Below, in pieces: positions 2,019 to 64,000 of a DNA stretch of 64,000 nucleotides. The position numbers were made by a program, and so were the translations under genes. Each line of letters opens with the position of its first letter. Within the stretch, counting starts at the first letter, position 1. The stretch lies in the sequence record MN850590.1. One strand, given 5' to 3'. Under the pieces are notes generated by a model. The model saw nothing but the letters and a program-made list of their open reading frames with translations. It did not search any database and was not told the DNA's origin. This DNA comes from Escherichia phage moha.

Positions 2019-3836
2019 ATGATTAAAAATGAAATTAAGGTATTGTCAGATGTAGAACATATTAAGAAACGTAGTGGTATGTATATTGGTTCTTCTGCTA
2101 AAGAAGCACATGAGCGTTTTTTGTTTGGTAAATATCAACAAGTTGAATATGTTCCTGGTCTGGTTAAATTAATCGATGAGATTATTGACAACTCGGTTGA
2201 TGAATCTATTCGTACATCATTTAAGTTTGCAAATAAAATTGATGTGCAAATTAAAAATAATCAAGTTTCGGTGGAAGATAACGGACGTGGTATTCCTCAA
2301 GGTTTAGTTACCGACCAAACAGGTGAACAAATTCCTGGGCCTGTAGCAGCCTGGACTATTCCAAAGGCTGGTGGTAACTTTGGTGATGATTCTGAACGCA
2401 AGACTGGTGGTATGAACGGCGTCGGGAGTAGTTTAACTAATATCTTCTCTACGTTGTTTACAGGCATCACGTCAGATGGCGAAAATGAAATCACTGTTAA
2501 TTGTTCAAACGGAATGGAAAACAAATCATGGTCTTCTAAGAAATCTAAATGTAAAGGCACTAAAGTAATCTTCACTCCTGATTTCTCTTCATTTGAAGAG
2601 CATAATTTATCTCAAATTTATTTAGATATTACTTTAGACAGACTTCAAACATTGGCAGTCGTTTATCCTGATATCAAGTTCACATTTAATGGTAAAAAGG
2701 TTGATGGTAATTTTAAACGATTTGCTAAACAATTTGGTGAAGATAACATCATTCAAGAAAATGATAAAGTCTCTATAGCATTCACAACATCACCAGATGG
2801 CTTCCGTCATTTAACTTATGTGAATAACATCCATACTAAAAATGGTGGTCATCATGTTGAATGTGTAATGGATGATATCTGCGAACATCTTTTGCCCGGT
2901 ATTAAAAAGAAATATAAGGGTATTGAAGTCACTAAAGCTCGTGTTAAAGAATGTCTCACAATGTTGATGTTTATTAGAGACATGAGCAACATGCGTTTTG
3001 ATTCTCAGACTAAAGAACGTTTAACGTCAACGTATGGTGATATTCGTAATCATATCCAATTAGATGCTAAGAAAATTGCTCAGGCACTTCTTAAAAACGA
3101 AGCCTTGATTATGCCTATTGTTGAAGCAGCATTAGCTCGTAAATTGGCAGCAGAAAAGGCTGCAGAAACTAAAGCAGCTAAAAAGGCAACTAAAGCTAAG
3201 GTTCATAAGCATATTAAAGCTAACCAATGTGGTAAAGATGCAGATACGACATTGTTTTTAACAGAAGGTGATTCGGCAATTGGTTATCTCATTGATGTTC
3301 GTGACCGTGAACTACACGGCGGATTCCCATTACGTGGTAAGGTGATGAATAGCTGGGGTATGTCATATGCTGATATGATGAAGAACAAAGAGCTCTTTGA
3401 TATCTGTGCTATCACGGGTCTTATTCTTGGTGAAAAGGCAGAGAATACGAACTATCGTAATATTGCAATTATGACCGATGCCGATCATGACGGTCTTGGA
3501 AGTATCTATCCGGCTTTGCTTGCTTTCTTTAGTAATTGGCCTGAATTGTTTGAACAAGGACGTATTCGCTTTGTTAAAACACCTGTAATTATTGCACAAA
3601 TTGGCAAAGCTCAAAAATGGTTTTATACTGTAGCTGAGTATGAAGAAGTTAAAGATACACTGCCTAAGCATAGTATTCGATACATCAAGGGATTAGGCTC
3701 CCTTGAAAAGTCAGAATATCGTGAAATGATTCAGAACCCTGTGTACGACGTAGTTAAACTTCCTGAAAATTGGAAAGAACTCTTTGAAATGTTGATGGGT
3801 GATGATTCAGAACTTCGTAAAGAATGGATGTCCTAA
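2019..3836 (+). CDS. 39: DNA topoisomerase II large (ATPase, GyrB-like) subunit, uninterrupted gene 39 (39+60 equivalent)
   Basis: 605 aa; GHKL ATPase motif VEDNGRGIP; N-terminus resembles T4 gp39; single ORF as in T2-type phages, no bypass element. Confidence 0.9.
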   Translation: MIKNEIKVLSDVEHIKKRSGMYIGSSAKEAHERFLFGKYQQVEYVPGLVKLIDEIIDNSVDESIRTSFKFANKIDVQIKNNQVSVEDNGRGIPQGLVTDQTGEQIPGPVAAWTIPKAGGNFGDDSERKTGGMNGVGSSLTNIFSTLFTGITSDGENEITVNCSNGMENKSWSSKKSKCKGTKVIFTPDFSSFEEHNLSQIYLDITLDRLQTLAVVYPDIKFTFNGKKVDGNFKRFAKQFGEDNIIQENDKVSIAFTTSPDGFRHLTYVNNIHTKNGGHHVECVMDDICEHLLPGIKKKYKGIEVTKARVKECLTMLMFIRDMSNMRFDSQTKERLTSTYGDIRNHIQLDAKKIAQALLKNEALIMPIVEAALARKLAAEKAAETKAAKKATKAKVHKHIKANQCGKDADTTLFLTEGDSAIGYLIDVRDRELHGGFPLRGKVMNSWGMSYADMMKNKELFDICAITGLILGEKAENTNYRNIAIMTDADHDGLGSIYPALLAFFSNWPELFEQGRIRFVKTPVIIAQIGKAQKWFYTVAEYEEVKDTLPKHSIRYIKGLGSLEKSEYREMIQNPVYDVVKLPENWKELFEMLMGDDSELRKEWMS

Positions 3837-9609: not shown

Positions 9610-9692
9610 GCTCTAAAATGTGGATCGGAATATGGTTGCTTAGTATCCCTATGATTTGTATAATATTTTCAATTGCATTGAGGTACTTATGA
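9606..9692 (+). CDS. hydrophobic micro-protein (28 aa)
   Basis: ATGA start/stop overlap with upstream ORF; MSSKMWIGIWLLSIPMICIIFSIALRYL is a plausible single TM helix; below ORF-track cutoff. Confidence 0.35.
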   Translation: MSSKMWIGIWLLSIPMICIIFSIALRYL

Positions 9693-9796
9693 AAAATGCA
9701 CTTATTGTATTAAGAACAATTTGTGATACGGGTTTTTACATTGCATGTTCGTTCACTGGAACATGGATGGCTTTAACATATTTTAATGTAATTTAA
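9689..9796 (+). CDS. hydrophobic micro-protein (35 aa)
   Basis: ATGA overlap with preceding micro-ORF; MKNALIVLRTICDTGFYIACSFTGTWMALTYFNVI. Confidence 0.3.
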   Translation: MKNALIVLRTICDTGFYIACSFTGTWMALTYFNVI

Positions 9797-9798
9797 TT

Positions 9799-9828
9799 GT
9801 TTACATCACGGTAGGATTATGGTATAGT
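9799..9828 (+). promoter_or_regulatory. early promoter: -35 GTTTAC, -10 TGgTATAGT
   Basis: GTTTAC 9799-9804, TATAGT 9823-9828; palindrome GTAGGA/TCCTAC 9811-9836. Confidence 0.5.
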
Positions 9829-9856
9829 AGTCCTACTGAAACATGAGGAACACAAA

Positions 9857-10580: not shown

Positions 10581-10632
10581 TTTATACGGACCTATTAAGT
10601 TGGGCCTTTAATTTATTTTTGAGGTAATTAAA

Positions 10633-10779
10633 ATGGTAGCATGGATTATTGCATTGCTGTGTTGGTCGTTTTTATTCGTTAACACTTTAGTTACGGGCGA
10701 AACAACAGTATTTCAACAGGCCGTATCACAAGGTACCTTAGCGGTCTTAGCTCTTATTAACGTGTTAAAAGGCGAGTAA
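10633..10779 (+). CDS. small membrane protein (T4 ac-position)
   Basis: 48-codon ORF, hydrophobic (MVAWIIALLCWSFLFVNTLV...); not in ORF track. Confidence 0.35.
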   Translation: MVAWIIALLCWSFLFVNTLVTGETTVFQQAVSQGTLAVLALINVLKGE

Positions 10780-10920
10780 TGATTAAGAAAATCTTAGCAG
10801 GAGCCTTCGGGCTCTTGTTGTTGCTTACGGTTCTGTACTACGGTGTGATGTTTGGACTAATCCAAGTAGTGCTTTTCATTTCAGATGTTATAATGGTTAT
10901 TCGTTCATTAATATGGTGAA
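10780..10920 (+). CDS. small membrane protein
   Basis: 46-codon ORF immediately following, hydrophobic (MIKKILAGAFGLLLLLTVLYYGVMFGL...); ends 3 nt before gene 52. Confidence 0.35.
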
Positions 10921-10923
10921 AAT

Positions 10924-12249: not shown

Positions 12250-12326
12250 GTGCCCTAGCCTTAGGATTTCTCGGTGCAATAGCTGTACTAGTGATTTGGC
12301 TGTATTGGTTGGACAAACATGATTAG

Positions 12327-12347
12327 GGAGCTTCGGCTCCTTTTTTG
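12327..12347 (+). terminator. intrinsic terminator after gene 52
   Basis: GGAGC-TTCG-GCTCC then TTTTTTG. Confidence 0.65.
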
Positions 12348-12367
12348 TGCATTTTTCTCACAAAACA

Positions 12368-12396
12368 GTTTACATGTGCTTCAAACATGATATTAT
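12368..12396 (+). promoter_or_regulatory. early promoter upstream of motA: -35 GTTTAC, -10 TGaTATTAT
   Basis: GTTTAC 12368-12373, TATTAT 12391-12396. Confidence 0.5.
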
Positions 12397-12435
12397 AGAC
12401 CTATCAAAACAAAACAACCAAATTGGAGAAATAAA

Positions 12436-42235: not shown

Positions 42236-42243
42236 TATAAATA
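42236..42243 (+). promoter_or_regulatory. late promoter (TATAAATA) for rIII
   Basis: Exact TATAAATA directly after gene 31 stop; hairpin GAAGAG-AACA-CTCTTC at 42251-42266 in leader. Confidence 0.5.
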
Positions 42244-42359: not shown

Positions 42360-42608
42360 ATGATTAAACAATTACAACACGCTCTTGAACTGCAACGTAA
42401 CGCATGGAATAATGGTCACGAAAACTACGGCGCGTCGATTGATGTTGAAGCCGAAGCACTGGAAATCCTGCATTATTTCAAACATCTGAACCCGGTACAG
42501 GCAGCTTTGGCCTCTGAACTGGAAGCAAAAGATGAACTGAAATATGCTAAGCCTTTGGCTTCTGCAGCTCGTAAAGCAGTACGTCATTTTGTTATTACCC
42601 TAAAGTAA
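42360..42608 (+). CDS. rIII: lysis-inhibition accessory protein RIII
   Basis: 82 aa = T4 RIII; recalled strong similarity; late promoter TATAAATA upstream. Confidence 0.85.
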   Translation: MIKQLQHALELQRNAWNNGHENYGASIDVEAEALEILHYFKHLNPVQAALASELEAKDELKYAKPLASAARKAVRHFVITLK

Positions 42609-42686
42609 GTTAAATCGAGGAGCCGTCGAACTGTCTGATTAATGATTTGCGAATCATTATAGTTTTAAGTCCCCGGCAGTTTTACG

Positions 42687-42715
42687 GTGTACCTCTTGAA
42701 TGTATTTTGTACTAT
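42687..42715 (+). promoter_or_regulatory. candidate sigma70-type promoter inside rIII-downstream non-coding region
   Basis: GTGTAC 42687-42692, 17-nt spacer, TACTAT 42710-42715; weaker match than other early promoters. Confidence 0.3.
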
Positions 42716-42871
42716 CACGCGTCAGAAAAAGGTTATCTGTCTAAGTCGTGGTTGGTATGATGACGGGTTTATGGTTATCCTGTCGTTAAATATCCAAAAC
42801 CTATGTTCCCCTTGAGGGCTTGCGCAGGCAATGTCAATAAGTCCTGCATTTTCATTTAAAGAGAATTTATA

Positions 42872-43051
42872 ATGGCAAAACAAGCTAAAGCAAAGAAAGC
42901 AGTTGAAAAGAAAGTTGATGGTACCTCTAAACGCGCTGGATACAAGCGTGGGTCGAACTCTCGTATTAATCAAACAGTTGAGAAGATCATGCGCAGAGCA
43001 CGTGCAGTTCTTCGAGATGATGCTTCTCGTTTTGGAAAGGTTGTTGCATAA
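42872..43051 (+). CDS. small lysine/arginine-rich protein (59 aa), unlisted ORF
   Basis: ATG 42872 to TAA 43049-43051; MAKQAKAKKAVEKKV...; followed by GGGAGAC-UUCG-GUCUCCC terminator; below ORF-track cutoff. Confidence 0.45.
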   Translation: MAKQAKAKKAVEKKVDGTSKRAGYKRGSNSRINQTVEKIMRRARAVLRDDASRFGKVVA

Positions 43052-43056
43052 TTTTA

Positions 43057-43081
43057 GGGAGACTTCGGTCTCCCTTTTGTG
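43057..43081 (+). terminator. intrinsic terminator after small basic ORF
   Basis: GGGAGAC-TTCG-GTCTCCC then TTTTGTG; same hairpin sequence as the gene 32 terminator. Confidence 0.7.
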
Positions 43082-43111: not shown

Positions 43112-43140
43112 GTTTACTCTCCTGTAGGATGTGTTACTAT
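43112..43140 (+). promoter_or_regulatory. early promoter: -35 GTTTAC, -10 TGtTACTAT
   Basis: GTTTAC 43112-43117, TACTAT 43135-43140. Confidence 0.5.
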
Positions 43141-63331: not shown

Positions 63332-63333
63332 TA

Positions 63334-63359
63334 TGCTTTACATTTTTTGATGGTATAAT
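63334..63359 (+). promoter_or_regulatory. middle (MotA-dependent) promoter upstream of rnlB
   Basis: MotA box TGCTTTA 63334-63340, 13 nt, -10 TATAAT 63354-63359; -35/-10 spacing too short for a sigma70 early promoter. Confidence 0.45.
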
Positions 63360-63450
63360 GAATCTAGGTTCTATCCATTCAAATTAAACATCGGGTCGGA
63401 GACAGAGTCTCTGCTAATTATTTTGATATTATTATTTATAATGGTGATTT

Positions 63451-64000
63451 ATGTTTAAGAAATACAGCAGTCTTGAAAACCACTACAACTCTAAGTTTAT
63501 TGAAAAACTCTACACTAACGGTTTGACTACTGGTGTTTGGGTAGCACGTGAGAAAATCCATGGGACTAACTTCTCGTTAATAATTGAACGTGACAACGTC
63601 ACATGCGCCAAGCGCACAGGCCCTATTCTTCCAGCAGAAGATTTTTATGGTTATGAAATTGTACTCAAGAAGTATGATAAGGCTATTAAAAACGTTCAAG
63701 AAGTAATGGGTAGTTCTCGAGCTGTATCATATCAGGTCTTTGGTGAATTCGCTGGTGGTGGAATCCAGAAAGGTGTTGACTACGGTGAAAAAGATTTTTA
63801 TGTGTTCGATATCCTTATCAATACAGAAAGTGGTGATAATACGTATTTGACCGATTACGAAATGCAAGATTTCTGTAATGAATTCGGTTTTAAAATGGCA
63901 CCAATGCTTGGTCGTGGCACATTTGATGCTCTTATCATGATTCCAAACGACCTTGATTCTGTCTTAGCCGCTTATAATGCTACTGCGTCAGAAGACCTTG
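63451..64000 (+). CDS. rnlB: RNA ligase 2, N-terminal part (runs off window end)
   Basis: N-terminus [21 protein letters not shown] and nucleotidyl-transferase motif KIHGTN match T4 Rnl2; MotA-box promoter upstream. Confidence 0.85.

Follow-up and report, generated by a model that had tools for sequence, protein, structure and literature searches.

The rIII–30.9 gap of T4-type phages as a probable island of conserved, structured RNA modules

The genome of Escherichia phage moha (MN850590.1), of which we analyzed a stretch of 64,000 nucleotides (nt; this whole stretch is hereafter the window), carries a gap of 263 nt between gene rIII, whose stop codon lies at 42606-42608, and gene 30.9, whose ATG lies at 42872. 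Comparison with related phages suggests that this gap is a conserved, modular island of structured RNA that includes an autonomous pseudoknot, a reading to which we assign a probability of roughly 0.85. The fuller statement, that the island also includes a decoy function exerted in trans, is tentative, and we would rate it somewhat short of an even chance. The open reading frame (ORF) of 59 codons that follows the gap is ordinary and already known; it is the non-coding island that is unannotated. T4 is the best-studied phage, yet this gap of 244-263 nt is unannotated in its reference genome as well (NC_000866, in which the 244 nt at 130541-130784 hold no feature). In the literature that we searched, neither the gap nor any T4 small RNA located there was described, and no ToxI-like sequence was reported in T4.

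Conservation of the gap and its pseudoknot

To compare the gap across phages, we used 45 distinct T4-type loci collected through gp30.9 (loci and contigs are cited by L numbers). All loci with an rIII homologue had the same layout, with a long gap of 120-416 nt separating rIII from 30.9 downstream. Compared side by side, the gaps form a mosaic whose units recur in varying order and combination. The window itself carries modules E – F – A – C, in this order and all on the plus strand (Table 1), each of them single-copy within the 64 kilobases (kb). Between the window and T4, 87 of 89 positions of module E, 53 of 55 of module A and 65 of 67 of module C were identical, as compared to 67.5% of third codon positions in rIII and 86.5% in 30.9. 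The corresponding values for the Dhaka-type phage L053 were 85/89 (E), 53/53 (F) and 55/57 (A), with third codon positions at 78% in rIII and 54% in 30.9. Overall, module identity reached 96-100%, against 54-87% for synonymous sites of the flanking genes. As non-coding DNA is here better conserved than the synonymous sites of both neighbors, we conclude that the gap is under purifying selection.

Folding of the whole gap was energetically unremarkable (z-score -1.33) and not significant on either strand, and the case for RNA structure is therefore comparative rather than energetic. None of the 4227 Rfam families, including PreQ1, SAM-II, Fluoride, Pistol and other ribozymes, matched inside the gap at an expectation value (E) <=10; these scans covered the gap region, 18 related loci, a 316-nt slice and a 2.5-kb search space. 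The whole window, scanned at the gathering score, likewise returned no match.

The comparative evidence is most extensive for module A, the sole unit present in every rIII–30.9 gap examined. Over ~57 nt it is predicted to form an H-type pseudoknot. Its first stem, P1, is a 6-bp hairpin, often with one bulged base, that encloses an 11-nt loop; P2 forms between five bases of this loop and a segment 15 nt beyond P1. The intervening 15-nt linker is A-rich and conserved (GTTAAATATCCAAAA at 42785-42799). In an alignment of 26-30 distinct versions, 79-84% of cells were paired (88-93% in P1 and 69-75% in P2), as compared to 26-52% when the 3' partners were slid by one to three columns. Double-sided changes were found in 51-54 cells, versus 8-23 in the slid controls, and not one of 500 shuffles reached that number. 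The G-U pairs of the module fit the plus strand only. Several unpaired positions were invariant or nearly so, namely the UU after P1, the UUAUC ahead of the 3' strand of P1, and CGU(U)AAA…(C/U)(A/G)AAA in the linker. A covariance model of the module, R1, scored 67 bits at the window copy and found no second copy in the 64 kb, in agreement with a pattern search. The T4 counterpart of the module lies at about 130.60-130.66 kb on the minus strand. We rejected a 10-codon mini-ORF (ATGATG...TAA) lying over module A, as it is not conserved: it meets an early stop in L016, falls in another frame in L022 and lacks an ATG in L027 and L074. The position of module A relative to both neighboring genes is variable, with its 3' end ~60 to 290 nt away from the ATG of 30.9.

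Module A was also found outside the T4-type phages, by pattern scans of viral collections and BLAST of phage genomes; these copies were confirmed with R1, at 45-68 bits. On L074, a myovirus-like contig of 55 kb from metagenomic data that is only distantly similar to phages of 85-103 kb (of Salmonella, Escherichia, Shigella and Acinetobacter) and to a Pseudomonas phage portal gene, module A fills the entire 58-nt spacer between the transfer RNA (tRNA) genes for Asp and Pro. This copy limits the functional unit to <=58 nt and, judging from established tRNA maturation, ordinary tRNA processing would release it as a separate small RNA. L110 and the metagenomic phage contigs L103-L108 carry module A in a non-coding stretch of ~0.8 kb upstream of terminase-like genes, in L103 at ~95 nt upstream of tRNA-Pro/tRNA-Leu, and in L118 it follows tRNA-Ile at a distance of ~220 nt. 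Five Vibrio phages of 128-149 kb (424E50-1, 501E54-1, 1.187.O, eugene 12A10 and 1.063.O), represented by six records, hold it in stretches that, where examined, are unannotated and follow tRNA genes. None of these non-T4 loci encodes an rIII or 30.9 homologue. The converse case is L070, a Pseudomonas T4-type phage in which 30.9 stands right behind an early promoter, with no rIII and no modules. Since phages that lack rIII and 30.9 carry module A too, we regard it as an autonomous small-RNA unit rather than a dedicated leader of 30.9. Absent from Rfam, the motif is common to Tevenvirinae, to large Vibrio phages and to several phage lineages known from metagenomes, and it frequently lies next to tRNA genes. 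A metagenome scan for it added one short contig only.

The surroundings of the module in L103-L108 showed two further features. In L104 (region 2130-3280), and in the same arrangement in L103 and L105-L108, module A is preceded by a consensus promoter (TTGACA-17 nt-TACTAT) and a small ORF. The sequence around it appears to be structured and could contain additional RNA genes.

Companion modules within the gap

Module E, a long interrupted hairpin, comprises 25 pairs in an RNAalifold consensus of 11 variants, five of them with compensatory changes, and includes three invariant G-U pairs that fit the plus strand only. In L058, for example, AATGATT/AATCATT has become ATCGATT/AATCGGT. The 5' base of the module contains a GGAG motif of the RegB type at 42619-42622. 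An earlier, sequence-only reading of the window had pointed to a perfect hairpin, TAATGATT-TGCG-AATCATTA at 42640-42659; it is present, and it forms the tip of module E, where pairing has been kept through compensatory changes. The two direct repeats named by the same reading, GGTTATCTGTC (42731-42741) and GGTTATCCTGTC (42773-42784), are likewise there, and represent the loop and 3' strand of two similarly built hairpins, in modules F and A. A palindromic core, TGCGCA, does exist, although one base away from where it had been placed (it occupies 42821-42826). Less remains of the proposed elevation in G+C content, since the gap is only marginally richer than the window (39.5% vs 37.7%) and 30% of all 263-nt segments are equally or more GC-rich.

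Module F is a cassette hairpin whose inner stem covaries (CAGA/TCTG to CAGC/GCTG in L007 and L028). It is absent from T4, and its slot is taken by another module, B, in L050, L051 and L061.

Module C, adjacent to the start codon of 30.9, combines three elements. C1 is a small hairpin (CCC 42809-42811 / GGG 42816-42818) within the conserved motif GTwCCC...GGGCTTG, which was found in all lineages except two. C2 is a hairpin of GCAGG 42824-42828 and CCTGC 42843-42847 with the conserved loop CAATGTCAATAAGT. Its stem changes in sequence while the pairing stays (GCAGG/CCTGC, GGGAGC/GCTCCC, GAACTGG/CCAGTTC, GGTGGAG/CTCCAC and GGCGA/TCGCC), and its loops differ among lineages in which gp30.9 is nearly invariant. 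The third element is a weak hairpin over the ribosome-binding region (ATTTTC 42848-42853 / GAGAAT 42861-42866), predicted in most lineages at energies from -1.9 kcal/mol in the window to between -6 and -7.7 kcal/mol in Klebsiella-type phages.

Further modules were found in the gaps of relatives. Module D is a single ToxI-like pseudoknot unit of 34-36 nt, located immediately behind the stop codon of rIII or deeper in the gap. It is carried by NicPhage (a 99.3% relative of the window; L002, ~1915-1949), mogra, the Dhaka-type phages L050 and L060-L062, and T4 with its close relatives (~130745-130778 of NC_000866, minus strand). It also occurs in the Klebsiella-type phages L012-14 and L024 (at gap offset 84-118 in L012) and in L021, L023, L025, L026, L030 and L066. 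Our ToxI reference was the 36-nt repeat of the Pectobacterium plasmid pECA1039, confirmed at 100% in NC_011767. A BLAST search with module D of L024 matched the ToxI arrays of 66 plasmids and 52 E. coli genomes, with 90-93% identity across 30 nt. It was the only module to match any of the 72,556 plasmids or 5,426 E. coli genomes searched; modules A, E, F, C and B gave no match there at E<=10. The two predicted stems of module D are both kept by compensation (UGC/GCA to CGC/GCG, CAC/GUG and AGC/GCU; GGU/ACC to AGU/ACU), with 93% of cells paired as compared to 20-58% when slid. A 12-nt match to module D in L103-L108 was discarded, being a hairpin loop and not a ToxI unit.

Module B is an RNA of ~138 nt with 40 predicted pairs, 19 of them showing compensatory changes, and without a match in Rfam. 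It lies at ~120-257 of the L012 gap and recurs in L013-L031, L050, L051, L061, L067-L069 and L071, that is, in T4-like phages of Klebsiella and Enterobacter and in Dhaka-type phages, where it occupies the slot of the window's module F. A possible similarity to the T4 RNAs rnaC/rnaD was considered and dismissed by eye.

We also observed a small hairpin, module G, with the conserved loop UGUACG (DNA TGTACG), the flanks GCCCAC...TAAC and three covarying stems (CCATG/CATGG, CTCTG/CAGAG and CTTTG/CAAAG). It sits at different gap positions: at 1-35 of the L012 gap, in L018, L023 and L071, and at the tip of C2 in L021 and L022.

Even among near-identical genomes, cassettes have been gained, lost or replaced. 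Module F gives way to B or is missing, and D is present in NicPhage and deleted in the window. Taken together, four or more RNA folds in the gap covary and are under strong selection. The earlier proposal of a structured, non-coding plus-strand RNA region that is co-transcribed with the gene of a small, very basic protein is supported, and the gap is conserved in close relatives beyond the synonymous sites of its neighbors.

Candidate functions of the island

No terminator was found between the rIII stop codon and 30.9, the first one being at 43057, so that rIII transcripts would enter the gap; rIII has early, middle and late promoters (PMC9409239). Transcripts from these promoters would read through the gap to the terminator after 30.9, and in the window lineage a candidate promoter at the E/F junction may add more. 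The stable modules would then fold independently and probably be cut out of the transcript, after which pseudoknot A could act in trans by binding a protein. Its most likely role would be that of a decoy or inhibitor of a host RNA-targeting defense nuclease, in the manner of the ToxI, CptI and TenpI antitoxins and of the phage "pseudo-ToxI". Modules E and F would be lineage-specific companions, and module C the real leader of 30.9.

We regard this decoy model as the most economical functional one because a ToxI mimic adjoins module A in relatives, because the architecture resembles that of CptI and TenpI, and because module A lies in the tRNA operons of other phages. The cassette behavior of the locus (the F/B swap and the loss of D), typical of accessory and counter-defense loci, was counted in its favor as well. 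ToxI, CptI and TenpI are small H-type pseudoknots (36 to ~60 nt) with A-rich loops that bind and neutralize a protein (PMC4627078, PMC12283969). Module A shares with these type III antitoxins the H-type fold with an A-rich loop, CptI and TenpI being compared by their described architecture; in module A, the P1 and P2 stems are supported by covariation and the linker (GUUAAAUAUCCAAAA) is conserved. RNA mimicry of ToxI is, moreover, an established route of phage escape from ToxIN, seen in PhiTE, in which one copy, or part of one, carried by the phage in non-coding DNA can serve as the mimic (PMC3475682).

Module A differs from the type III antitoxins in several respects. It occurs as one copy per locus, without tandem repeats; it neighbors rIII and 30.9, with no adjacent toxin gene of the ToxN, CptN or TenpN family; and a loop of 4 nt separates its P2 from P1, the linker being 15 nt long.

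A number of observations weigh against a decoy function. In the searches of plasmids and E. coli genomes mentioned above, module A showed no detectable sequence similarity to any bacterial antitoxin. The linker motif AAAU associated with ToxN is not conserved, class-II variants carrying GUAAAACA instead. In the window lineage P2 appears weaker, with four pairs (GG/CC and UA/UA) and one bulged U in the alignment. The ToxI-like unit that relatives carry has been removed from the window by a 32-bp deletion that coincides exactly with module D, so the ToxI argument holds by neighborhood only. T4 does have the ToxI-like unit, and wild-type T4 is nevertheless ToxIN-sensitive and escapes through a protein, TifA (PMC9391042). 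The universal presence of module A in Tevenvirinae fits a core function better than accessory counter-defense. Its absence from the plasmids and E. coli genomes mentioned above counts in the same direction, as does the outcome of two pattern scans of 185,579 species genomes, which found no bacterial or archaeal copy, although these bacterial searches were insensitive and copies diverged by more than ~10-15% would escape them. The first scan gave 0 matches and the second 19, all of which were rejected, as 19/19 lacked the P1 complement and scored 17-22 bits with R1. Fourteen of the 19 came from Methylococcales, mostly Methylobacter, and shared one intergenic sequence; the other five were singletons. 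That sequence (ATAATCCTCCCGTTAAATAAGCAAAACAAGTGATTTAAT, within L084-L102) is itself conserved in Methylobacter/Methylococcaceae, and its resemblance to the linker pattern of module A, at 17-21 bits, is a chance match.

A broader proposal extends the decoy model to the gap of T-even phages in general, T4 included, as an "RNA counter-defense island" that swaps decoys (the ToxI mimic, B, F and A). Module A would in this proposal be a widely distributed phage inhibitor of a host immune nuclease that is guided or inhibited by RNA, for example of a type III toxin family, delivered from tRNA operons elsewhere. We regard this extension as speculative and rather unlikely as a whole. If the modules are decoys, they would constitute a general RNA-based layer of counter-defense besides the protein inhibitors of phages, at a locus that is genetically tractable for testing. 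If they are not, module A remains a new and widespread phage RNA motif in need of a function.

Among the alternatives, we considered whether the whole gap is a long structured 5' untranslated region that governs how the 30.9 mRNA is translated or how stable it is, with gp30.9 itself as a possible regulator. In T4-type phages 30.9 is always preceded by the gap, and gp30.9 is very basic and helical. Module C adjoins the start codon, its ribosome-binding-site hairpin recurs in other sequences (UUUUC/GAGAA in the window, UCUCC/GGAAG elsewhere), and in Klebsiella-type phages CCAU also pairs with AUG. Nevertheless, we consider this leader improbable. The distance of module A to the ATG varies as given above and the order of modules is shuffled; module A exists without a 30.9 homologue, even between tRNA genes; and 30.9 of L070 has a plain early promoter and no modules. 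The ribosome-binding-site hairpin is, in the window, just -1.9 kcal/mol. In the autoregulation of T4 gene 32, a pseudoknot at a fixed position flanks an unstructured operator extending to the ribosome-binding site. Module A is likewise a conserved H-type pseudoknot in the leader of a T-even mRNA, ahead of the gene for a small protein of the nucleic-acid-binding type, but it differs in locus and sequence, has no fixed spacing and also occurs without a downstream protein gene.

Judging from its placement, module C is the only plausible cis leader of 30.9: it abuts the ATG and carries the recurring hairpin, weak in the window, and modules A, E and F have no fixed position relative to the ribosome-binding site. 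Of the long structured 5' leader suggested by the sequence-only reading, only the last ~65 nt (module C) are leader-like, while most of the structure is not dedicated to 30.9; its second suggestion, a small RNA, comes nearer to the evidence. Autogenous control by gp30.9, also raised there, is not favored, since the C2 loop varies between lineages while gp30.9 is highly conserved.

It is also unlikely, in our view, that the modules are context-independent cis elements which set processing sites and protect flanking RNA ends, with no function of their own. Candidate cleavages would be those by RegB at GGAG, by RNase III or RNase E in hairpin E, and at the pseudoknot in the manner of RNase P. Context independence would suit such elements, and the RegB-type GGAG does lie at the base of a ~25-bp interrupted hairpin, in an rIII–30.9 interval without a terminator. 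The tRNA operons that carry module A are, furthermore, sites of heavy RNA processing. On the other hand, tRNA genes supply processing sites themselves, which would make an extra element between two tRNAs superfluous. The invariance of unpaired bases across unrelated phages (UU of loop 1 and CGU.AA....AAA of the linker) points to specific recognition, and the replacement of F by the elaborate module B, with its many compensatory pairs, is hard to explain in this way.

The T4 RNAs species 1 (rnaC) and species 2 (rnaD) offer a parallel as short, stable, non-tRNA RNAs that are co-transcribed and processed, given the location of module A in or beside the tRNA clusters of unrelated phages. They do not, however, resemble it by eye; R1 finds nothing in the T4 tRNA region; and in T4-type phages module A lies in mRNA, outside the tRNA cluster.

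A third alternative, that module A is a small riboswitch-like aptamer sensing a metabolite, seems quite remote. The preQ1-I and SAM-II riboswitches combine a P1 stem, a 2-nt loop 1, a P2 stem that involves the hairpin loop, and, in the minor groove of P1, an A-rich linker. The layout of module A recalls them, preQ1-I in particular, with its compact H-type fold, 2-nt loop 1 (UU), conserved loop nucleotides and A-rich linker. Its linker is, however, about twice as long, no Rfam family matched it in either the 316-nt or the 2.5-kb search space, no expression platform is evident, and the distance to the downstream gene is variable. The copy between two tRNA genes has nothing there to regulate.

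The gap also bears comparison with the PeSLs (promoter-early stem-loops) of T4-type phages, which Arbiol et al. in 2010 reportedly presented as units of a promoter and a terminator-like stem-loop flanking accessory ORFs. Common to both are short, modular, non-coding cassettes shuffled between T4-type genomes and, at the E/F junction, an early-promoter-like site beside stem-loops. The gap modules differ in being elaborately folded, with conserved loops and a pseudoknot, and their promoter is not conserved.

Finally, a coding or DNA-only explanation (small ORFs, promoter cassettes, recombination scars or recent horizontal transfer) is very unlikely: although mechanical ORFs exist (42647-42760 and 42687-42815 on the plus strand and 42722-42973 on the minus strand, one of them annotated in NicPhage), as do the promoter-like site and a mosaic structure indicating recombination at the locus, the loss of F in T4 and 1-nt indels in A and C disrupt the ORFs, the compensatory changes and G-U pairs are specific to plus-strand RNA, unrelated phages carry the motif between different flanking sequences, and the promoter is not conserved.

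Flanking genes and transcription signals

The window belongs to an RB69-like T-even phage (Mosigvirus). The ~1 kb around the gap is 98-99% identical to Mosigvirus phages (the RB69 group), and ~770 T-even phage records show 78-95% similarity to the same stretch. In annotated relatives, the gene order is cd – 31.1 – 31 – rIII – [gap] – 30.9 – 30.8 – 30.7. Coordinates of the features in the window are collected in Table 1.

Table 1. Predicted RNA modules, genes and transcription signals around the rIII–30.9 gap, in window coordinates.
Feature	Position	Strand	Details and basis
T4 late-promoter motif TATAAATA	42236-42243		Between gene 31 and rIII; read from sequence
rIII, lysis-inhibition accessory protein, T4-type	42360..42608	+	Annotation of relatives; tblastn 91-100% identity
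Module E, long interrupted hairpin	42617..42695	+	Base GAGG 42617-42620 / CCTC 42692-42695; tip hairpin 42640-42659
Candidate T4-early-type promoter GTGTAC-17 nt-TACTAT	42687..42715	+	Straddles E/F junction; -10 comes from cassette F; status uncertain
Module F, cassette hairpin	42716..42750	+	Outer stem CACG 42716-42719 / CGTG 42747-42750; inner stem CAGA 42723-42726 / TCTG 42736-42739; loop AAAAGGTTA
Module A, predicted H-type pseudoknot RNA, ~57 nt	42754..42809	+	P1 42762-42767 / 42779-42784; P2 42770-42774 / 42800-42804
Module C, probable true 30.9 5' leader	42806..42871	+	C1, C2 and weak ribosome-binding-site hairpin
Gene 30.9, 59 amino acids, very basic, conserved hypothetical protein	42872..43051	+	Annotated as 30.9 in RB69 and T4
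Intrinsic terminator GGGAGAC-TTCG-GTCTCCC + TTTT	43057..43078	+	Sequence; "terminator, -16.3" annotated in the 99% relative G2469
Canonical T4 early promoter, A-tract + GTTTAC-17 nt-TACTAT	43112-43140		Between 30.9 terminator and 30.8; sequence

The sequence-only reading was right about the 263-nt non-coding gap after rIII, about the basic ORF of 59 codons that follows it, and about the terminator behind that ORF, a GC-rich UUCG hairpin with a T-run, which also gave terminator-like partial matches to small-RNA 3' ends in Rfam. The ORF, however, is not unlisted as had been thought: gene 30.9 is annotated in RB69, T4 and hundreds of relatives. Its product in the window is 100% identical to gp30.9 of RB69 and 96% identical to that of T4, and the gene lies between rIII and 30.8, so that homology and synteny agree. 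With an isoelectric point of 11.35 and 18 Lys or Arg among 59 residues, gp30.9 belongs to phrog_1427 (E=2e-31), a family of unknown function, and it matched no Pfam family. AlphaFold predicted a disordered basic N-terminus and one long helix at low confidence (predicted local distance difference test, 67; predicted template modeling score, 0.36). The homologues form 65 clusters, and all source-named ones come from Enterobacterales phages except one record labeled Shigella flexneri; gene 30.9 is restricted to T4-type phages.

Versions of 30.9 with a longer N-terminus are annotated in T4, namely a 73-amino-acid ORF 31.-2 and a 97-amino-acid "11.1 kDa protein". We rejected this upstream in-frame extension, which is not conserved; in the window, a 1-nt indel gives a stop in that frame. 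Public records also mislabel gp30.9 as "1,4-alpha-glucan branching enzyme, GH-13-type" or "11.1 kDa protein". In the NicPhage record, gp31.1 is labeled "Phage tail fiber protein" and a 42-codon ORF is called inside the non-coding gap, both of them propagated mis-annotations.

The sequence of the candidate promoter at the E/F junction, another item of the sequence-only reading, is indeed there and resembles the early promoter ahead of 30.8, but a sigma-70 scan did not report it. Nor is it conserved, as the -10 element is missing in T4 and replaced in phages with cassette B, and the -35 element is missing in L007. Based on this comparison, the promoter would be lineage-specific at best.

ARAGORN found no tRNA or transfer-messenger RNA in the window. 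Elsewhere in the window, stretches free of ORFs of >=55 amino acids on either strand lie at 9610-9856, 10581-10923, 12250-12435 and 63332-64000.

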